Shown here in pieces: positions 12,905-29,033 of a DNA stretch of 30,977 nt. The notes under the pieces were generated by a model. It was not told the origin of the DNA and did no database searches. It was given only the letters and a program-made list of their open reading frames with translations. The position numbers were made by a program, and so were the translations under genes. The DNA is from an uncultured Atribacterota bacterium (GTDB lineage Bacteria; Atribacterota; Phoenicimicrobiia; Phoenicimicrobiales; Phoenicimicrobiaceae): positions 1-30,977 of the forward strand of contig CBFCZX010000001.1 of NCBI GenBank assembly GCA_965602765.1, read 5' to 3'. Numbering within the stretch: position 1 is the first letter of the stretch; every line of letters begins with the position of its first letter.

Positions 12905-13107
12905 TGGCTTTCTCCATTCTGTAATCTCAATAGATTGTATCTCTTTTCTTTCTCAATAAATCAAATCATATATCATCATTTTCTAAAATGCTATCAATAC
13001 AATTAATTCTTTGCTTATACGATAAATACATACATTAATTCTTTCAGACTCTTATTGTACAAAAAATAATTCAAACATTGTTTCATTAATTAAGAAAATT
13101 ATTTAAA

Positions 13108-13140
13108 ATTATAGTATTTATGACTATTTTTGTCAACATT
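13108..13140 (-). promoter_or_regulatory. Perfect-consensus promoter overlapped by an IscR type-1-like box
   Basis: TTGACA (13136-13131), 17 nt, TATAAT (13113-13108); 13116-13140 on minus reads AATGTTGACAAAAATAGTCATAAAT, 19/25 matches by hand to the recalled ATASYYGACTRwwwYAGTCRRSTAT. Confidence 0.75.
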
Positions 13141-13456
13141 CTTCATGCAAAATGTTTATATCCTTATTTTTAAAAAAAGCAATGACAATAATGTTATTTA
13201 GAAAAAACAATAAGTAAATATAGAGACATCATTATCTAGGATTACTACAATATTCGAAAATATATTTTTTTACAATCGAATTGGAAAAAAATATATTCCT
13301 TCAATATCTCATTCTGCTGAAAATATTTCTTATTTTTTTCAACAACGGTCTTCATAAAGAATCAGGGTGAATAATAGTAGAAAACAGACAGGTAAATATT
13401 TTGCTTTATTAATTTTATATGCTTAATATGATATACAAACTTTAAAAAAGTTTACA

Positions 13457-13503
13457 TAAAAAGTAAAGGGGAAATTGCAATGCAGTTTCCCCTTTACTTT
13501 TTA
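13457..13503 (-). terminator. Intrinsic (bidirectional) terminator after ferredoxin
   Basis: Perfect 18-bp arms TAAAAAGTAAAGGGGAAA / TTTCCCCTTTACTTTTTA. Confidence 0.85.
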
Positions 13504-13521
13504 TATTTTTCCATTAGTTAT

Positions 13522-13707
13522 TTACTCACAGGTTATTGCTTCAACCGGGCAATCTTCCGCTGCCTGTTTGCATGATTCTGATAAATTTTCAGGTACATTG
13601 GTAACTTTTGTTGTGGCCATGCCATCTTTTAATTCAAATACTTCGGGACAAGTATCTTCGCAAAGTCCACATCCCGTACATAAATCCTTATCTACCTTGG
13701 CTTTCAT
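13522..13707 (-). CDS. Monocluster [4Fe-4S]/[3Fe-4S] ferredoxin
   Basis: CTGCGLCEDTCP and distal DCP; GGAGGG SD. Confidence 0.93.
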   Translation of the reverse strand: MKAKVDKDLCTGCGLCEDTCPEVFELKDGMATTKVTNVPENLSESCKQAAEDCPVEAITCE

Positions 13708-14106
13708 TTTATCCCTCCTTCTTTTGTCTAGTATTTATCCAAAAAAACATAAAGTTTCTTTAAAATAAAATAACTAAAATGTTTTAAGAAGAAAAACTCC
13801 AACAATACTAGAGTAACTTAAAAATGAATTGATTTCAAGTATTTCATTATAAGCATACATCGGTGATTGAAACTTTGCATAATTTTAAAAAAATATTTCT
13901 ATTATCTTACAATGCATTTTCTATAAAATCAATAAAATGATAAATTGAATTAAATTCTAATAATTTTCTTGATAAAAAAAGGTATTTCCTAAAATATCCA
14001 TTAAATAAATATTGCGAGTAAATATTTAATTTTTTTATGGACAATAATATGCGGTTTATTGATACCTCTTTTTCTTGCTCAGATATATTTAAATGGTTGT
14101 GTTATG

Positions 14107-15108
14107 TTATTTCAGTATTTCAATGATGGCTCGAGTATATTTGATCGTGTCTGCTTTACCACCCAGATCAGGTGTTATTATTTTACCTTCCTTTAATACG
14201 CGCATCATCGCTTTTTCTATTCTATCCGCTGCATTTTTCTCTCCCAAATGTCTTAACATCATAACTCCGGAAAGGATAGTTGCGGTAGGATTCGCCGAAT
14301 GCGCTTTCAATCCTTTTGGTGCCGTACCATGAACCGGCTCAAATACTACCGTTTCATCTCCGACATTCATTCCGGGCACTACACCTAGCCCGCCTACCAG
14401 GCCGGCAGATAAATCGGATAGGATATCGCCATACAGGTTAGGCATAACCAATATTTCATAATCTTGGGGCATTTGAACCAGTTTCATGCTCATTGCATCG
14501 ACAATCATCTCTTCAAAAATAATCTCTGGATATTTTTGCGCGACTTCTTTCGCACACGCTAAAAAAAGACCATCGGTACATTTCATAATATTTGCTTTAT
14601 GCACCACTGTTACTTTTTTTCTTCTTTCATTCCTTGCTAAGTCAAATGCAAATTTTGAAATCCTTTTACTAGCTTTTCTGGTAATCACCTTGATGCTCTC
14701 CGCAGCATCCTCTCCAACCATATGCTCTATTCCGGAATATAGACCTTCAGTATTTTCCCTTACAATCACTAAATCAATATCAGAATATTTTGATGGTATA
14801 CCCGGATAATTTTTTATTGGTCTTACATTAGCATAAAGATCTAAAGATTTTCTTAGTGTAACATTTATACTCCTAAAACCTCCTCCTATGGGTGTTGTTA
14901 CCGGTCCTTTCAGAGCAACTTTATTCTTCCTGATATTATCTAATAAATGCTTTGGAAGCGGTGTGCCATATTTTTTAATTACTTTTTCGCCCGCCTCTAC
15001 TATCTCCCAGTTAATATTTACACCACTTGCTTCTAGAACCATTCTTGCTGCACTGGTAACTTCCGGACCTATTCCATCTCCCGGTATTAAGGTAATGGTA
15101 TACTTCAA
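14107..15108 (-). CDS. icd: Isocitrate dehydrogenase (short IDH/IPMDH-family type)
   Basis: LIPGDGIGPEV, SINVTLRKSLDLYANVRP, RENTEGLY, HKANIMK, PNLYGDILSD; TTG start; operonic with aconitase and citrate synthase. Confidence 0.8.
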   Translation of the reverse strand: MKYTITLIPGDGIGPEVTSAARMVLEASGVNINWEIVEAGEKVIKKYGTPLPKHLLDNIRKNKVALKGPVTTPIGGGFRSINVTLRKSLDLYANVRPIKNYPGIPSKYSDIDLVIVRENTEGLYSGIEHMVGEDAAESIKVITRKASKRISKFAFDLARNERRKKVTVVHKANIMKCTDGLFLACAKEVAQKYPEIIFEEMIVDAMSMKLVQMPQDYEILVMPNLYGDILSDLSAGLVGGLGVVPGMNVGDETVVFEPVHGTAPKGLKAHSANPTATILSGVMMLRHLGEKNAADRIEKAMMRVLKEGKIITPDLGGKADTIKYTRAIIEILK

Positions 15109-15138: not shown

Positions 15139-17076
15139 CTATTCTTTTTTTTGAGATTTTATCAAGTTTAAAAAACCGCCAGCAATTGTCATTTCTTTTT
15201 GTCTTTGACTAAGATTCAAATACATTTTGCACTCTCTTTTTTTACTCTTATTTATTATGCAGATAATTCCACTTTTTTTTATCTGCTGCACTATATTTTC
15301 AATCAACAATTCATCCATCTCATCTATATGATCATATTCTGATGGATCTTCAAAGACCAAAGGCAATATTCCGTTGTTAATTAAATTAGTTTTATGTATC
15401 CTTGCAAATGATTTCGCCAAAACTGCTTTTACTCCAAGATAAAGAGGAACAAGTGCAGCATGTTCCCTGCTTGAACCCTGACCATAGTTTAAGCCTCCCA
15501 AAATAAAACCTCCTTTAAATTTTCTGGCTTTTTTTGGGAATTCTTTATCACATATTGTCAGGCAATAATCTGAAAGATAGGGAATATTTGACCTGTAAGG
15601 CAACAGTTTGGCAGAGGAAGGCATGATATGATCAGTGCTTATATTGTTTCCTACCTTAATTAAAACTTTTCCCTGTAAATGTAAGCCCATTGGTTTATTT
15701 ACTGGAAATGGTTTAATATTAGGACCTCTTATTATTTCGACTTTTTCATCATTATTTACCGGCGGAACTACCAGGTTATCATTAACCGTAAAACTTCCGG
15801 TTATTTTATCTTCTGGATAATTTTTTAATCCCAATTCTCTTGGATCTGTAATAAAACCGGTAAGAGCGGATGCAGCAGCTATTTCCGGACTGGCTAAATA
15901 AATGTCTGCTGAAATTGTCCCGGATCTTCCTTTGAAATTACGGTTAAAAGTTCTTAATGATATACCATTGGTAGACGGAGATTGCCCCATCCCAATACAA
16001 GGACCACAAGCACACTCAAGAATTCTAGCCCCAGACATAATCAAAGATGCCAAAGCACCATTTTGTGCAAGTAATGTTAAAACCTGCCTTGAACCCGGTG
16101 CTATTGCCAGAGAAACATGCTCTGCTATTGTTTTTCCTTTGAGAATTCCTGCGACTCTCATCAAATCACTATATGAAGAATTAGTACAACTGCCAATTAT
16201 AACCTGATTTACTTTAGTATTTTTTAAAGAGGATACACTAACCACATTATCCGGACTGTGTGGGCAAGCAACCAAGGGTTCAAGCTGAGAAAGGTTAATG
16301 GTCATTTCTTCATGATAATCAGCTCCTTGGTCCGCTTTTATTTTTCGATAATCCTGCCCCCTATTTTGATTTTTGAGAAAATTCAGGGTTACTTCATCAC
16401 TTGGAAATATTGAAGTAGTTGCACCTAATTCGGCTCCCATATTAGTAATGGTAGCTCTTTGAAATACAGATAGGTTCTTAACACCTTCACCGGTATATTC
16501 TAATATTTTACCTACTCCACCTTTTACGGTTAATCTCTTCAAAATCTCAAGTATAATATCTTTGGCCGATATCCAGGGATTCAATTCACCCTTCAAATCC
16601 ACTTTTATTATTTGTGGCATAATGAAATGATATTTTCCTTGAGCCATGGCTATGGCAACATCCAATCCTCCTGCCCCAATCGCCAACATTCCCAGACCTC
16701 CGGCTGTTGGCGTATGACTGTCGGAACCTAAAAGTGTTTTTCCGGGTATGCTAAATCTTTCTAAATGAACTTGATGGCATATACCATTCCCTGGTTTAGA
16801 ATAATATATGCCATATTTCTTGGCAATGGTCTGAATAAAGAGATGGTCATCAGCATTTTCAGGGCCTGATTGAATCATATTATGGTCAACATAAGCCAAT
16901 GATCTTTCTGTTTTTAATTTTTTTACGCCTAGTGCTTCAAGTTGAAGATAAACCATAGTGCCAGTTGAATCCTGTGTTAATGTTTGGTCAATTTTGATTG
17001 TTATTTCTTCCCCGGGAAACATCTTGCCTTCTAATAAATGGTTTTTTATTAATTTTTGGGCAACTGTCAATGGCAA
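15139..17076 (-). CDS. Aconitate hydratase (single-chain, ~645-aa type)
   Basis: GICHQVH, GSDSHT, IGSCTNSS, CGPCIGMG, STDHI, NYGQGSSREHA; TTG start with AGGAGG SD. Confidence 0.92.
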   Translation of the reverse strand: MPLTVAQKLIKNHLLEGKMFPGEEITIKIDQTLTQDSTGTMVYLQLEALGVKKLKTERSLAYVDHNMIQSGPENADDHLFIQTIAKKYGIYYSKPGNGICHQVHLERFSIPGKTLLGSDSHTPTAGGLGMLAIGAGGLDVAIAMAQGKYHFIMPQIIKVDLKGELNPWISAKDIILEILKRLTVKGGVGKILEYTGEGVKNLSVFQRATITNMGAELGATTSIFPSDEVTLNFLKNQNRGQDYRKIKADQGADYHEEMTINLSQLEPLVACPHSPDNVVSVSSLKNTKVNQVIIGSCTNSSYSDLMRVAGILKGKTIAEHVSLAIAPGSRQVLTLLAQNGALASLIMSGARILECACGPCIGMGQSPSTNGISLRTFNRNFKGRSGTISADIYLASPEIAAASALTGFITDPRELGLKNYPEDKITGSFTVNDNLVVPPVNNDEKVEIIRGPNIKPFPVNKPMGLHLQGKVLIKVGNNISTDHIMPSSAKLLPYRSNIPYLSDYCLTICDKEFPKKARKFKGGFILGGLNYGQGSSREHAALVPLYLGVKAVLAKSFARIHKTNLINNGILPLVFEDPSEYDHIDEMDELLIENIVQQIKKSGIICIINKSKKRECKMYLNLSQRQKEMTIAGGFLNLIKSQKKE

Positions 17077-17136: not shown

Positions 17137-18531
17137 TTATTTGGTTGGTAAAATAGGAAATATTTCAGGAAAATATTTTCGAGCTAATAATTCTAGTTCT
17201 TCATCACTTATTACAGTTGCTCTTTTATTTTCATACTCTTCTTCAACCCATTTTTTTATTTCTAGTATTCTAACATCCTTTTTATTAATCTTTTTTTCAT
17301 CTTTTAAATTGAAAAAAGTATTTATCCAAGCAGCAATTCCAGCAATTCCGGAATGAGCACCTACGGCAATTACCACAGGTTTTTTTAAGATTTTATGTGT
17401 ATCAAATATATTATAGATTTCTTCATTTTTTAATATACCATCTGCGTGAATTCCTGCCCTCGTTGCATTAAATGCTTTTCCTACAAAAGGTGTTCTTGGA
17501 GGTATTTCGTAATGAATGACATTTTCAAAGTAATCGGCTATTTCAGTTATTATTTCAAGCTTCATATTTTTAATAGTGCCCCGCAGCTGTGCATATTCAA
17601 TTATCATTGCTTCTAAGGGACAATTTCCCGTTCTTTCACCTATACCTAAAAGAGAGGTATTCACTGCAGCAGCCCCATAAAACCAAGCTGTCGATGAATT
17701 GGATACTGCTTTATAAAAATCATTATGTCCATGCCATTCAATCCACTCCGATGGCACACCGGAATAATGTCGAAGCCCGTAAATAATCCCTTGAACACAT
17801 CTTGGCAATGCTGCACCCGGATAGGATACTCCCAATCCTAAAGTGTCACAAGCCCTAATTTTAATCGGAATTTTTGCTTTATTCGATAAATCCATTAATT
17901 TATTTGCAAAGGGGACTACAAAGCCATAAAAATCAGCTCGAGTAATATCTTCAAAATGGCATCTAGGAATAATTCCCTGCTCTAGAGCTGCTTCCACAAT
18001 AGAAATATACATATCCATCGCTTGCTTTCGTGAAAGATGAAGTTTTTTGAATATATGGTAATCAGAACAAGATACCAATATACCTGTTTCCTTTATTCCT
18101 ATTTGTTTAACCAGCTTAAAATCATCTTTTTTTGCCCTTATCCAGGTAGTCACTTCCGGATATTTATAATTTCTATTTAAGCATTTTTCTATTGCATCTC
18201 GATCTTTTTCAGAATAGATGAAAAATTCTGTCTGTCTTATTATGCCTGATTTATTATCTAATCGATGCAGGAAATCATAAATCGATAATATCTGTTCTGC
18301 CGTATATGGTGATCTGGATTGCTGCCCGTCTCTAAAAGTTGTATCAGTCACCCAGATTTCACTTGGGACAAATGAGGGCACATGTCTATGATTAAAAGTG
18401 ACTCGAGGTATTTCATCAAATGGAAATACTTCCCTAAACAGATTTGGTTTTGTTACATTTTGCAAGTTGTATTTATATATTGACTGTTCTAATAAATTAG
18501 AACGTTTACTAAATATTACATTTTTAGTCAT
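17137..18531 (-). CDS. Re-citrate synthase (IPMS/HCS DRE-TIM family)
   Basis: DTTFRDGQQ, HGHND, GERTGNCPLE; N-terminal extension like clostridial Re-CS; adjacent to acn and icd. Confidence 0.8.
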   Translation of the reverse strand: MTKNVIFSKRSNLLEQSIYKYNLQNVTKPNLFREVFPFDEIPRVTFNHRHVPSFVPSEIWVTDTTFRDGQQSRSPYTAEQILSIYDFLHRLDNKSGIIRQTEFFIYSEKDRDAIEKCLNRNYKYPEVTTWIRAKKDDFKLVKQIGIKETGILVSCSDYHIFKKLHLSRKQAMDMYISIVEAALEQGIIPRCHFEDITRADFYGFVVPFANKLMDLSNKAKIPIKIRACDTLGLGVSYPGAALPRCVQGIIYGLRHYSGVPSEWIEWHGHNDFYKAVSNSSTAWFYGAAAVNTSLLGIGERTGNCPLEAMIIEYAQLRGTIKNMKLEIITEIADYFENVIHYEIPPRTPFVGKAFNATRAGIHADGILKNEEIYNIFDTHKILKKPVVIAVGAHSGIAGIAAWINTFFNLKDEKKINKKDVRILEIKKWVEEEYENKRATVISDEELELLARKYFPEIFPILPTK

Positions 18532-18574: not shown

Positions 18575-19873
18575 TTAAGGCCAAATCCCTCTAATTTCCA
18601 TACTTTTTGCAACTTTTGAAATTGCATACATGTATGCTGCAGTACGGTTGTTCACTTTTTTATCCAGACTGATTTTTAAAACCTCGTTAAATGCTGTTAC
18701 CATTAATTCTTTTAGTCTTGAATTTACTTTTTCTTTGCTCCAGAAATAGCCGTAAAGCCCTTGAACCCATTCGAAATAAGATACCGTTACTCCTCCGGAA
18801 TTAGCTAAAATGTCAGGAATTATAAAAATGTTATTTTTAAAGAGAATATCATCTGCTTCCGGAGTAACCGGTCCATTGGCAGCTTCTGCGATTACTTTCG
18901 CTCTAATGCTACCAGCATTTTCCCTGGTTATTACTCCTTCCAAAGCAGCTGGAACAAGTATGTCACATTTCATTTTTAACAAATCATCATTTGAGATGGA
19001 CCTGGCTTTTGAATAATCACTTACGGTACCTGTCCTCATTTTATGTTCAAGTATTTCTACGGGATCAATTCCTTCCAAATTATAAACTCCTCCTTTTGAA
19101 TCACTAACACCAATGATCGTATACCCCTGTTCATGCAACAATCGGGCGGCTATAGAACCGGCATTGCCATAACCTTGAACAACTGCCGTAGCTTTTGATG
19201 GATTTAATTTCAAATATTTCGCAGCTTCTTTTACTATCATCGATAAACCGCGGGCAGTTGCTTCTTCTCTACCCTGTGATCCCCATAAATCAAGCGGTTT
19301 TCCGGTAATTGTGGCATAAGCAGATGAATGACAGATTTTATTATAAGTGTCAGTATACCAGCCCATAATTTTAGGATTTGTATATACGTCAGGGGCAGGG
19401 ATATCTTGTCTCGGGCCGATAATCGCTGATATCTCAAAAATATATCTTCTGGAAAGTCTTTCCAGTTCACCTTCAGACATTACTTTTGGATTACATTTAA
19501 TGCCTCCTTTTCCCCCTCCGAATGGAATTCCAACTATCGCACACTTCCAGGTCATCCAGGCAGACAGGGCTTTCACTTCGTCCAAGCTGACTTCGGGATG
19601 ATATCTCACTCCACCCTTTGCAGGGCCCCTGGCAGTATTAAATTGTGATCTGTAACCTTGAAATACTTTTACTTCTCCGTTATCCATTCTCACAGGAACC
19701 GAAACCATTAATACTCTTTCAGGTTCTTTAAGCTGGTTTAAAATATCAGGATTCAAATTCATTCTTTTTGCAGCAATTTCCAGTTGAATTTTTGCTATTT
19801 CAAAAACATTTGAAGATTTTTTCCTCTCCAATTTGACTAAACTCGCATTTCTTTCACTTATTTGATAAACCAT
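18575..19873 (-). CDS. gdhA: Glu/Leu/Phe/Val dehydrogenase, probably glutamate dehydrogenase
   Basis: GPAKGGVRYHP, GGGKGG, DIPAPDVYT, QGYGNAG, EAANGP, NSGGVTVSYFEW; start at ATG 19873 after an AAAGGA SD. Confidence 0.92.
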   Translation of the reverse strand: MVYQISERNASLVKLERKKSSNVFEIAKIQLEIAAKRMNLNPDILNQLKEPERVLMVSVPVRMDNGEVKVFQGYRSQFNTARGPAKGGVRYHPEVSLDEVKALSAWMTWKCAIVGIPFGGGKGGIKCNPKVMSEGELERLSRRYIFEISAIIGPRQDIPAPDVYTNPKIMGWYTDTYNKICHSSAYATITGKPLDLWGSQGREEATARGLSMIVKEAAKYLKLNPSKATAVVQGYGNAGSIAARLLHEQGYTIIGVSDSKGGVYNLEGIDPVEILEHKMRTGTVSDYSKARSISNDDLLKMKCDILVPAALEGVITRENAGSIRAKVIAEAANGPVTPEADDILFKNNIFIIPDILANSGGVTVSYFEWVQGLYGYFWSKEKVNSRLKELMVTAFNEVLKISLDKKVNNRTAAYMYAISKVAKSMEIRGIWP

Positions 19874-19980
19874 TTTATTTTTTCCTTTCAATATTTAATT
19901 CTAAATTTTTTCATAAATTAAAATAGAACTTAAAGTTTTTCCGGTAGTATAAACACCTCCACATAACGGCTCAGTTTTTT

Positions 19981-20033
19981 AAAATAAAAAGCCTTTTTTA
20001 AGACTGCCTTAGTCTTAAAAGGCTCCCTTGCCT
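19981..20033 (-). promoter_or_regulatory. ANTAR-type attenuator: hexaloop hairpin overlapping an intrinsic terminator
   Basis: AGGC-AAGGGA-GCCT (20033-20020), then AAGACT-AAGGC-AGTCTT; alternative terminator AGCCTTTTAAGACT/AGTCTTAAAAAAGGCT followed by TTTTATTTT. Confidence 0.7.
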
Positions 20034-20061
20034 AATTTTAATTTTTAACTGCAGTGTTGTT

Positions 20062-20081
20062 TTTCTACTCCGGTGTAGAAA
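20062..20081 (-). promoter_or_regulatory. Additional ANTAR-like hairpin (A1/G4 hexaloop)
   Basis: TTTCTAC-ACCGGA-GTAGAAA. Confidence 0.45.
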
Positions 20082-20087
20082 TATTGC

Positions 20088-20121
20088 GTGCTAAAAAATA
20101 CTACATAGTATTTTTTAGCAC
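20088..20121. repeat. Perfect 15-bp inverted repeat just after the ANTAR gene stop
   Basis: GTGCTAAAAAATACT / AGTATTTTTTAGCAC with a 4-nt loop. Confidence 0.85.
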
Positions 20122-20122
20122 T

Positions 20123-20824
20123 TTAATTATTTCTTACTTCATAAGAAAGGATAATTGCTTCAGCTACCTCCTTCATTGAAATTCTCTTATTCATACTATA
20201 TTTTCTCATCAAGGAAAAAGCTTTTTCTTCATTGACGCTTTTTTCCCTCATTAAAATACCTTTTGCTCTTTCAACTTTTTTTCGGGTTTCAAGCTCTTTT
20301 TGAATGATTTCAGTCTTAACGATTAATTCAGTTTTTTCAATTGCAACAGCAGCTTGATTTGCGACTGTACTTAAAAGGCTAATATCTGCTTTTGTATAAT
20401 TGTATAAAGTAGTCGTATAAACATTGAGGACGCCAATCACCTTACTGTTTACCATCATTGGAACACTTGCCATGGAAACTAAGCCTTCTTTTTCTGCAAG
20501 ATTCTTTTCCTTATAGCGGATATCTTTCAACACATCCAAAATAATGACAGGTTTTTTCTCACGCGCTACCAGGCCTACAATCCCCTCACTTATCTTTATT
20601 ACCCTTTTTACTAAATATTCTCTACTCATTGATTGTGTAGCCTCTATGGTAAATTCTTGATTTTTTTCGTTTAATAACCATATGTTACAAATTTTTGCAC
20701 ACATAACGTTTGCTGTTAAAGTAACGATCAATTTCAATATTTCTTCAAGATACATTTCTGATGTTATTGCTCTACTTATTTTATTTAAAGTTTTCAAGTA
20801 ATCTTCAAGATTGTACTTCTGCAT
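20123..20824 (-). CDS. One-component GAF-ANTAR RNA-binding antiterminator
   Basis: GAF (EGIVGLVA, SVPMM..VIGVLNVY, LSTVANQAAVAIE) plus ANTAR (LETRKKVERAKGILM...AFSLMRKYSMNKRISMKEVAEAII); ATG 20824 has better SD spacing than 20833. Confidence 0.93.
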   Translation of the reverse strand: MQKYNLEDYLKTLNKISRAITSEMYLEEILKLIVTLTANVMCAKICNIWLLNEKNQEFTIEATQSMSREYLVKRVIKISEGIVGLVAREKKPVIILDVLKDIRYKEKNLAEKEGLVSMASVPMMVNSKVIGVLNVYTTTLYNYTKADISLLSTVANQAAVAIEKTELIVKTEIIQKELETRKKVERAKGILMREKSVNEEKAFSLMRKYSMNKRISMKEVAEAIILSYEVRNN

Positions 20825-20911
20825 AATTTTCATACCCTTTTACGGACATTTATTTTATAGTATATTTATTATTACTTTACTAAATTAAAGTATTAAAGTA
20901 TAAAATTTTAT

Positions 20912-20971
20912 AAAAAAGCCTGAAAGATAGGTTATGTTCATTTTTACAGAACCTATCTTTCAGGCTTTTTT
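20912..20971 (-). terminator. Riboswitch expression-platform terminator
   Basis: Perfect 22-bp arms AAAAAAGCCTGAAAGATAGGTT (20971-20950) / AACCTATCTTTCAGGCTTTTTT (20933-20912). Confidence 0.9.
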
Positions 20972-21063
20972 CCCAAAAGTGTAACACTTATTTTTTAAAA
21001 ATGTCTGTACCGCTCGGTCCAGCTTCTTTTGGTTATGGAACGGAACCCTAGGCACACTCCTGT
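20946..21063 (-). ncRNA. ykkC-family riboswitch aptamer with P0 helix (ppGpp/PRPP-type architecture)
   Basis: ACAGGAGUGUGCCUAGGGUUCCG...GGACCGAGCGGUACA...ACACUUUUGGGAAAAAAGCCUGAAAGAUAGGUUCUGU; P0 ACAGGA/UUCUGU, P1 UGUGCC/GGUACA. Confidence 0.88.
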
Positions 21064-21089
21064 CTATTTAATATATTTTATTTTATGGG

Positions 21090-21118
21090 ATTATAGCAGG
21101 TCTTCTTGAAAAAGTCAA
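21090..21118 (-). promoter_or_regulatory. sigma70 promoter upstream of the riboswitch
   Basis: TTGACT (21118-21113), 17 nt, TATAAT (21095-21090). Confidence 0.8.
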
Positions 21119-21302
21119 GAAATTGAATAATTATTGTAATTGAACTTTGATATTTTCATCTTAAAAATAATTAGTAATAGTGTCACTACGGAAAAGTGAA
21201 GATGTCTAGTGACTAAATAAAGAATTAGTATGAGTTTGTGTTATCAACTCCCCAATTGAGAATAAGATGACCAGTGGCAGAGATTTAAAAAATTATTTTA
21301 AC

Positions 21303-28875: not shown

Positions 28876-28895
28876 ATAATTGTAAAATACTAACT

Positions 28896-28996
28896 ATGCT
28901 CTCCTTTCCAAACACGGGAGGGACAAAAGTTTCCTTTCGCTCCCCTTCGGCTAAATCACCATTGTTTTCCTTTAGGTAAAATAGCTCGGAGAATAT
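28896..28996 (-). ncRNA. Moco RNA motif, P3-less (Tuco-type) variant
   Basis: CUCCGAGC...ACCUAA...AUGGU...UAGCCGAAGGG...GAAAGGAAAC...CCUCCCGUGUUUGGAAAGGAG upstream of the cofactor operon. Confidence 0.88.
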
Positions 28997-29033
28997 GGGA
29001 ATGATTAATATAATTTCAAATTATCTTTTTAGT

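Follow-up and report, generated by a model that had tools for sequence, protein, structure and literature searches.

The closest described relatives of the system reported here are the ppGpp (guanosine tetraphosphate) riboswitch, which constitutes subtype 2a of the ykkC class (Sherlock, Sudarsan and Breaker 2018, PMC6003355; structures in PMC6031431; screen in PMC9881157), and the ANTAR-type antitermination systems of EutV, NasR and AmiR (Ramesh et al. 2012, PMC3369931). The published contexts are branched-chain amino acid genes for the ppGpp type and purine genes for the type that responds to phosphoribosyl pyrophosphate (PRPP), and ppGpp riboswitches have been tied to glutamate supply as well as to branched-chain amino acid genes (PMC6003355). 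The hexaloops targeted by ANTAR proteins carry A at position 1 and G at position 4 (PMC3369931). Here, we describe a locus in which a member of each family appears to act in series, a ykkC-type riboswitch preceding the gene for a GAF-ANTAR protein, which in turn precedes an attenuated operon for glutamate synthesis. The locus lies in a stretch of 30,977 nucleotides (hereafter the window) from an uncultured Atribacterota bacterium (GCA_965602765.1, contig CBFCZX010000001.1, positions 1-30,977; GTDB lineage Bacteria; Atribacterota; Phoenicimicrobiia; Phoenicimicrobiales; Phoenicimicrobiaceae). Coordinates are window positions, and the riboswitch-ANTAR-glutamate locus is located entirely on the minus strand. 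We read it as a single transcription unit in which two conditional terminators follow one another, running from riboswitch to ANTAR gene to operon, and we put the probability of this reading as a whole at about two in three (0.68). The names of database homologues point to the JS1 group of the Atribacterota, and the sequencing runs that contain the window sequence are from marine sediments.

An Rfam scan of positions 19850-21300 with relaxed thresholds revealed a match to RF00442 (Guanidine-I/ykkC) at 21062..20955, with a score of 51.6 bits, an E value of 6e-8 and all 107 model positions covered, whereas a scan at default thresholds had missed the element. The score is below the gathering score of 63 bits that applies to guanidine-I, a value that only one of the genome's four ykkC-type copies reaches. 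Counting P0, the aptamer extends over 21063..20946. P0 is formed by pairing of ACAGGA (21063-21058) with UUCUGU (20951-20946) and covaries, being UUGGAA/UUCCAA in the copy that precedes brnQ and GGGA/UCCC in the copy that precedes ilvB. When the aptamer segment was folded alone, P0 together with a four-way junction was the minimum-energy structure. Conservation of the structure was assessed with 16 sequences, comprising 14 ANTAR-linked copies, the ilvB copy and the brnQ copy. The full structure including P0 had 97.2% of cells paired and 13 pairs with compensatory changes, and the individual helices were 95-99% paired, likewise with compensatory changes. None of 500 shuffles was as good, and slid controls were only 32-44% paired. 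The ykkC-type riboswitch that a first-pass annotation of this DNA had proposed is thus borne out by a full-length family match and by covarying helices from P0 to P3, and the subtype markers described below agree with it.

Structural work has identified the positions that discriminate between the ykkC subtypes (PMC6031431). The A46 conserved in guanidine-I aptamers is replaced in subtype 2 by a pyrimidine (C49 in the PRPP structure), and subtype 2 has an extra helix, P0, formed from both ends. PRPP aptamers conserve G96, which pairs with C75, whereas ppGpp aptamers are without that G and the guanine of the ligand pairs with C75; in the PRPP structure, C78 contacts phosphate. In the window, the A46 position is occupied by C21012 (GAGCG against the consensus GAGAG; AAGCG in 13 relatives), and the C75 position is retained as C20981. 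The G96 position is A20960, which stands opposite C20981 in the Rfam alignment, where the consensus has G. At the G96 equivalent, A was found in 14 of 14 copies linked to ANTAR and also in those before ilvB and brnQ, in contrast to the purE copy, which has G. Given that these contexts occur in the same genome, ilvB and brnQ with A and purE with G, they provide an internal calibration of the subtype call. The genome also contains a RelA/SpoT synthetase gene. The assignment of the aptamer to the ppGpp-type ykkC subtype 2a is supported by these features of sequence, with ligand binding being predicted from them.

Other identities were considered and rejected. A guanidine-I aptamer is argued against by the score of 51.6 bits against 63, by C in place of A46 and by a gene context that is unrelated to guanidine, and a PRPP (subtype 2b) aptamer by the A at the G96 equivalent, where the PRPP-like purE copy has G. 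Including the present locus, there are four ykkC-type elements in the genome of the window. The other three precede brnQ (C38:4421-4525 in the L001/L002/L004 set, 63.5 bits), the acetolactate synthase gene ilvB (C59:4834-4953, 55.5 bits) and purE (C42:976-1103, 27.6 bits, PRPP-like), and each has a terminator-type platform. In one relative, an Atribacteria metagenome-assembled genome from NCBI (JACUKY010000005.1, locus L048:14951-15369), icd is followed by a T-box leader (104 bits), a ykkC element (49.8 bits) and ilvD, which is the published tandem of T-box and ppGpp riboswitch.

The 5′ arm of terminator 1 (A6-GCCUGAAAGAUAGGUU) lies within the P3 3′ strand, the tail and the P0 region of the aptamer, with the whole arm flanked by the P3 loop and the P0 3′ strand. 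The earlier claim that the 3′ strand of the aptamer doubles as the 5′ arm of a 22-bp terminator was therefore confirmed. The terminator hairpin alone had a calculated energy of -34 kcal/mol, and the full leader 1 gave -57.5 kcal/mol with the terminator as compared with -29.8 kcal/mol with the aptamer enforced. That the arm is contained in the aptamer, and that the terminator fold is far more stable, implies an ON-switch layout that is off by default. Terminator 1 was kept in 14 of 14 ANTAR-linked copies.

The gene behind terminator 1 encodes a protein in which Pfam found both a GAF and an ANTAR domain, in agreement with the first-pass annotation. Its start is probably the ATG at 20824 and not that at 20833, because database homologues are 233-234 residues long. 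The ANTAR match (PF03861) covers profile positions 4-54 of 54, and PDB entries 6wsh, 1s8n and 4akk match across this part of the protein. It was the single PF03861 match in the genome of the window, which is 88% complete, making this the only ANTAR gene found there. The best matches of the GAF domain were to the N-terminal GAF domains of PtsP (EI-Ntr) and NifA, which were sub-threshold and confined to the GAF domain, and among solved structures the matches were to the PtsP GAF domains 3ci6 and 3trc. The GAF domains of PtsP and NifA have been reported to sense glutamine and 2-oxoglutarate. By analogy, 2-oxoglutarate or glutamine could tentatively be suggested as ligand of the GAF domain described here. 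A distant relative with 40% identity, a GAF-GAF-ANTAR protein (L057; JGI 3300031952, Ga0315294_10000431), is encoded between glnA with an NAD (nicotinamide adenine dinucleotide) synthase gene on one side and a glutamine-dependent NAD synthase gene on the other, which is another nitrogen context.

The leader between the ANTAR gene and gdh (leader 2, 20123 to 19873) folded well beyond shuffles (z -6.15) and contains three hairpins with hexaloops, H1, H2 and H3, the last of which runs into a second terminator (Table 1). A at position 1 and G at position 4 were present in all three loops of the window and in nearly all loops of the relatives. The H1 stem was identical in all but one of 13 loci, the exception (G059) having a single mismatch. 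Its loop in the relatives is mostly AAGGGA, with the variants AAAGAG and UAGGAA and a 7-nt loop in one genome (G035), and the relatives' hairpins read UUUCUAC-AAGGGA-GUAGAA, GGC-AAAGAA-GCC and GGCC-AAAGAA-GUCC. The AAC/GUU stem of H2 in the window aligns column for column with the GGC/GCC stem of the relatives, which amounts to two compensatory pair changes. The terminator was present in 13 of 13 leaders, and in all 13 it is mutually exclusive with H3, the 3′ arm of which (GCC) is the G-C base of the terminator. Leader 2 had a calculated energy of -24.5 kcal/mol with the terminator and of -19.9 kcal/mol with H1-H3 enforced. Under the latter constraint only an A/U stem remained, which does not adjoin the U run. 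Sharing of an arm with terminator 2 therefore identifies H3 as the antiterminator element. The ANTAR-type hairpins overlapping a second terminator, as anticipated in the first-pass annotation, were found with the overlap intact, but their number had to be corrected from two to three.

A generic scan of the window's own genome for paired A..G.. hexaloops followed by a terminator returned four matches, against two in a reversed-sequence control. Only the window site among the four was convincing, and a wider ANTAR regulon in this genome was rejected. A Shine-Dalgarno-like GGAGGUG was observed ∼25 nt past terminator 2 and 80-100 nt before the real ribosome-binding site of gdh. In several of the relatives (among loci L007-L019) it is followed by a mini-frame of 1-7 codons, such as MVLFYS-stop or ATG-TAA. 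The site may represent a leader peptide or a ribosome loading site.

The arrangement was examined across 86 genomes of the phylum Atribacterota, as the first-pass annotation had envisaged with its search for ykkC element, ANTAR gene and hairpins together. A homologue of the GAF-ANTAR protein was present in 39 of these genomes, that of the window included, and 13 orthologues with 69-88% identity were found in seven genera of two families. All 13 orthologous loci had an RF00442 match just upstream on the same strand, with scores of 47.6-65.4 bits, a recurrence that implies more than chance. The next gene after the ANTAR gene was gdh in 11 of the 12 loci with a continuing contig and a Re-citrate-synthase-like gene in the other one, and a 192-kb NCBI contig carries the whole five-gene unit. 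A covariance model of the three-hairpin block (R1) had exactly one match per genome in 14 of the 86 genomes, each beside the ANTAR gene save one at a contig end. The presence of a single ANTAR gene and a single leader site is indicative of a dedicated local regulator. The two-tier layout that had been noted in the window, comprising riboswitch, terminator, ANTAR gene, hairpins, second terminator and operon, is thus kept as a unit in the relatives. Anatomy, RNA folds with covariation, domain content and conserved linkage are all shown by the sequence analysis.

The genes that flank the unit are not the same in the window as in its relatives. Within the order, genomes had either both the ANTAR gene and the Re-citrate-synthase-like gene or neither, contig-end cases excepted, and ∼31 of 52 genomes lack both, several of these being 97-100% complete. 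Joint presence and absence, together with the differing flanks, is consistent with a self-contained accessory module. By contrast, the ∼50%-identity homologues in other families (loci L020-L035; families f3, f4 and f6) had no ykkC element in any of the 16 loci scanned, no three-hairpin leader and neither gdh nor another operon gene within 1.5 kb, and the same-strand open reading frames (ORFs) flanking them had no Pfam match. At the one such locus that was inspected (L029), the ANTAR homologue is wedged between genes on the opposite strand. A Re-citrate-synthase homologue in one genome (G068), located without an ANTAR gene nearby, had no ykkC or other Rfam element in its leader. Outside the phylum, a contig search yielded one homologue from Omnitrophota (48% identity), for which no ykkC element was found, and the matches from a search of representative proteins were dominated by giant multi-GAF proteins.

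The promoter upstream of the riboswitch, at which a transcription start near 21083 would be expected, matches the sigma-70 consensus at 11 of 12 positions, the best score in 8 kb scanned, in keeping with the consensus promoter claimed earlier. A promoter occupies the same place in ten relatives, reading TTGACA-17-TAAAAT or TAGAAT in nine (11/12) and TTGACA-17-TAATAT in one (10/12). The four enzyme genes follow leader 2 in the order previously read from the sequence, gdh, Re-citrate synthase, aconitase and isocitrate dehydrogenase. The second of them encodes an HMGL-like enzyme that, judged from its sequence, probably acts as a Re-citrate synthase, and the failure to find a Si-citrate synthase (no PF00285 match in the 88%-complete genome) fits this assignment. 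Coordinates of all features are collected in Table 1.

Table 1. Positions of the features of the riboswitch-ANTAR-glutamate locus in the window, in order of transcription, with the evidence for each
Feature	Position	Strand	Evidence or remark
Sigma-70-type promoter, TTGACT-17-TATAAT with TGn extension	21118..21090	-	11/12 matches, best in 8 kb
ykkC subtype-2a ((p)ppGpp-type) aptamer, helices P0, P1, P1a, P1b, P2 and P3	20946..21063	-	RF00442 and covariation; ligand type predicted
Terminator 1, 22-bp stem and U6	20912..20971	-	Fold z-score -7.1 for leader
GAF-ANTAR protein, 233 amino acids (probable start)	20123..20824	-	Pfam GAF_2 1.5e-21, ANTAR 1.8e-19
Perfect 15-bp A/U-rich hairpin right after ANTAR stop codon	20088..20121	-	No U tract on coding strand
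H1, UUUCUAC-ACCGGA-GUAGAAA	20081..20062	-	Hexaloop, A at 1 and G at 4
H2, AAC-ACUGCA-GUU	20058..20047	-	Hexaloop A1/G4; in R1 model match
H3, AGGC-AAGGGA-GCCU	20033..20020	-	Hexaloop A1/G4; 3′ arm GCC is terminator 2 base
Terminator 2, GCCUUUUAAGACU, loop AAGGC, AGUCUUAAAAAAGGC, then UUUUUAUUUU	19981..20023	-	Stem 20023..19991, U run to 19981
Shine-Dalgarno-like GGAGGUG	19954..19960	-	Between terminator 2 and gdh; conserved as ACAGGAGGUGG
Glutamate dehydrogenase, gdh	18575..19873	-	Pfam; NCBIfam GdhA-type match 1e-170
HMGL-like synthase, probably Re-citrate synthase	17137..18531	-	Sub-threshold isopropylmalate/homocitrate synthase matches only
Aconitate hydratase	15139..17076	-	NCBIfam PRK07229, 971 bits, above cut-off
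Isocitrate dehydrogenase, Iso_dh family	14107..15108	-	Pfam

Two further observations concern the surroundings of the locus. Following icd, the window has a gene-poor and very AT-rich region of ∼1.2 kb (12905-14106) at the place where the relative mentioned above has its T-box/ykkC-ilvD unit. A past rearrangement may have left this region behind. At 28885-29003 on the minus strand, upstream of molybdopterin-related ORFs, is a Moco/Tuco riboswitch (RF01055, 75.1 bits), which appears in the alignment without a P3 hairpin.

The mechanism that we infer for the locus, including both ligands, the protein-RNA interaction and read-through, would be as follows. Without ligand, terminator 1 would form and transcription would stop at ∼20912. 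Binding of (p)ppGpp would let P0 and the tail of P3 retain the 5′ arm of terminator 1, and RNA polymerase would enter the GAF-ANTAR gene. Leader 2 by itself would terminate transcription at ∼19985. GAF-ANTAR protein made from the same or earlier transcripts would, when its GAF domain is active, bind the hexaloops and stabilise H3, thereby removing the G-C base of terminator 2 and permitting read-through to gdh, Re-citrate synthase, aconitase and isocitrate dehydrogenase. Together, the four enzymes would convert acetyl-CoA, oxaloacetate and ammonium to glutamate. In such a circuit ppGpp would act twice, in synthesis of the regulator and in the delivery in cis of RNA polymerase to terminator 2, and the double requirement would therefore make the circuit a coherent feed-forward AND gate. 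Its inputs would be starvation, signalled over a sustained period, and whatever the GAF domain reads, most likely, by analogy, a metabolite of nitrogen or carbon status such as 2-oxoglutarate or glutamine, and the gate should respond only to sustained starvation. An AND gate had already been suggested in the first-pass annotation. The serial wiring and the conserved layout support that suggestion as far as anatomy and conservation go, and the simple gate is here refined to a coherent feed-forward one.

Several observations weigh against this reading and are considered here together with the rival explanations. The layout could be right and the first switch sense not ppGpp but PRPP, pGpp only, a nucleoside diphosphate or the ligand of a new subtype, in which case the upstream signal would not be the stringent response. 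Consistent with such a ligand, and in addition to the score below the RF00442 threshold, the P3 5′ strand is ACACUUUU, as compared with ACACCG in the ilvB and purE copies, the equivalent of C78 is U, and the tail that leads from P3 to P0 lacks 1 nt relative to those copies. Moreover, the identity of A20960 as the G96 equivalent depends on the Rfam alignment, a right-justified alignment placing G20961 there, and in published screens some predicted 2a aptamers bound only ppGpp, only pppGpp or neither. The U at the C78 equivalent and the shorter tail thus make the exact ligand within the (p)ppGpp-like nucleotides uncertain. On the other hand, an aptamer of the ACACUUU type also precedes brnQ, which encodes a branched-chain amino acid transporter and is a typical 2a context, the Rfam alignment has A and not G opposite the C75 equivalent in every ANTAR-linked copy, the PRPP type is seen in the same genome at the purE-linked copy, and a link between ppGpp and glutamate synthesis has been published (PMC6003355). 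A first ligand other than ppGpp is judged unlikely. A serious minority possibility concerns the second input. The GAF domain might read no metabolite at all and the protein be active once made, in which case the circuit would have one input and act as a delay or persistence filter with positive feed-forward. The 2012 survey states that no GAF-ANTAR protein had been characterised (PMC3369931), and no ligand is known for any. Many GAF domains serve dimerisation alone, a serial layout by itself gives delay and noise filtering, and the ligand suggested above is drawn solely from sub-threshold similarity limited to the GAF domain. That the GAF domain covers the full Pfam model in a protein whose orthologues are 69-88% identical argues for a sensory role, as do the identity of its nearest relatives, PtsP and NifA, and the position of the distant GAF-GAF-ANTAR relative next to glnA and the gene for glutamine-dependent NAD synthase.

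The two tiers might also be uncoupled in cis, with a promoter for the gdh operon in or after the ANTAR gene, the riboswitch setting only the level of a regulator that acts in trans. An independent downstream promoter was looked for by sequence, and no site with at least 9 of 12 matches was present in the window between the ANTAR gene and gdh (20123-19873). H1 begins 25-42 nt past the ANTAR stop codon in 7 of 13 loci, the window included, and there is therefore no room for an intergenic promoter there; strong promoter conservation (10-11 of 12 matches in ten relatives) is confined to the site upstream of the riboswitch. In some relatives, however, inserts of 95-365 nt, unrelated to the window hairpin, separate the ANTAR stop codon from H1, and a weak 9/12 promoter-like site precedes H1 in six, lying within the inserted segment in four of the six and reading TTAATA-16-GATAAT, 42 nt before H1, in four, such that an internal promoter may exist in these relatives. 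Weak promoters can, in addition, hide in AT-rich DNA, and the window has a strong 15-bp hairpin just past the ANTAR stop codon, which resembles a terminator on the opposite strand and is absent from the relatives. An operon promoter of this kind is considered improbable for the window, and the cascade from riboswitch to ANTAR protein to operon would stand even if it existed. Finally, the three hairpins might not be ANTAR sites, leader 2 being some other attenuator that responds to a protein, a small riboswitch or a leader peptide, with the ANTAR protein acting elsewhere. In eut leaders the hairpins are 5-12 nt apart, and induction by EutV, the one ANTAR protein assayed in this way, was lost with linkers of 3 or 14 nt (PMC3369931), whereas the spacers here, at 3-5 nt between H1 and H2 and 13-15 nt between H2 and H3, are outside that range. 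Leader 2 had no match to an Rfam family in the relaxed scan, its covariation is thin because the relatives are close, and past terminator 2 there is a strong Shine-Dalgarno-like site with its mini-frame. Against this, A1 and G4 recur in all three loops of the window and almost all of those in relatives, the overlap of H3 with the base of the terminator is just that of known ANTAR leaders, and the leader, present at no other place in these genomes, always adjoins the sole ANTAR gene. An attenuator of another kind is thus very improbable. With respect to transcript ends, the runs labelled metatranscriptomic contained parts of the stretch as short contigs of low depth that are probably DNA, from which no 3′ ends could be read; this, too, counts against the serial reading.

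If the serial reading is correct, the presence of a ppGpp riboswitch and an ANTAR protein in one operon would mean that regulatory cascades can be assembled wholly from steps that follow initiation, an RNA sensing first and an RNA-binding protein second. The range of ppGpp-type riboswitches would be widened to an ANTAR-type regulator as target and to the Atribacterota, here uncultivated bacteria of marine sediments, for which starvation signalling is central. The GAF-ANTAR family, a large one without a characterised member in the 2012 survey, would gain a defined protein with a 70-nt RNA target and a pathway, and thereby its first cognate RNA and a candidate class of ligand. The three-hairpin site would imply a binding mode unlike that of the EutV dimer on two hairpins and is a natural test of how ANTAR proteins read the number and spacing of hairpins. 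The system is valuable mainly for being well defined and open to direct tests in vitro.

The first switch resembles the ppGpp riboswitch in its fold, P0 included, in having a pyrimidine at A46, the C75 equivalent and a residue other than G at G96, and in its ON-switch layout with an intrinsic terminator. The proposed logic is also alike, in that the alarmone turns on branched-chain amino acid genes and glutamate supply, and the genome itself has copies at ilvB and brnQ, while a relative has the tandem of T-box and ppGpp riboswitch. The published targets are branched-chain amino acid genes, glutamate synthase, natA-type transporters, selB and rex. In contrast, the direct target here is an RNA-binding regulator and not an enzyme or transporter, the host belongs to the Atribacterota and not to the Firmicutes, and the P3 5′ strand is the variant ACACUUUU. 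The second switch shares with EutV, NasR and AmiR the ANTAR output domain, the A1/G4 hexaloops, a last hairpin that excludes an intrinsic terminator, and a target in nitrogen or glutamate metabolism. It differs from them in having three hairpins instead of two, with the spacers given above, and in its GAF sensor, which belongs to the class listed without a characterised member (PMC3369931). It differs further in the position of the regulator gene, which is directly upstream in the same unit and is itself preceded by a riboswitch.

A riboswitch and an ANTAR protein have been found together before in the eut locus of Enterococcus and Listeria, where two signals control one pathway (PMC12591593, PMC5821096). 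There, an adenosylcobalamin riboswitch governs whether transcription terminates at a B12 element, and this element modulates antitermination by EutV. The eut riboswitch works via a decoy RNA with ANTAR sites that sequester the protein. In the present locus, by contrast, the riboswitch would gate transcription of the ANTAR gene and of everything downstream. The succession of promoter, antiterminator gene, terminator and structural genes is that of hutP-hutH in B. subtilis (PMC12591593). In both, the protein of the first cistron opens, or would open, the terminator behind its own gene. The same regulator-first layout with an internal terminator is found in the bglG operon of E. coli, bglG lying behind a terminator that is opened by BglG itself. 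Those proteins belong to other families (HutP and BglG/CAT), and no riboswitch precedes the regulator gene there. The two-tier feed-forward design has its counterpart in Geobacter sulfurreducens (GnfL/GnfM to GnfK/GnfR; PMC2995071), where the first tier switches on an ANTAR regulator together with targets and the ANTAR regulator relieves the terminators in leaders of nitrogen genes. In that case, however, the first tier is not RNA but a two-component system with RpoN (sigma-54) RNA polymerase, the ANTAR protein is a response regulator, and its targets are scattered loci.

A literature search found no paper that joins a ykkC or ppGpp riboswitch with ANTAR in a relevant way and none that links Atribacter and riboswitches, and in the main text of the two main ppGpp riboswitch papers ANTAR, GAF and gdh are not mentioned. 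The serial wiring of riboswitch and ANTAR protein is thus new to the literature that was searched, although both modules belong to known families and do not define a new class. Partial precedents, namely the ppGpp aptamer before rex, the AND gates of T-box and ppGpp riboswitch, the eut, hut and bgl systems and the Geobacter cascade, lower the conceptual novelty. Measured against them, the locus is, tentatively, a candidate for the first natural riboswitch that gates an antiterminator that in turn gates the rest of the same transcript, and so for a feed-forward AND gate operating entirely after initiation, with an alarmone as first input, a metabolite of nitrogen or carbon status read by a PtsP-like GAF domain as second, and an ANTAR site of three hairpins.

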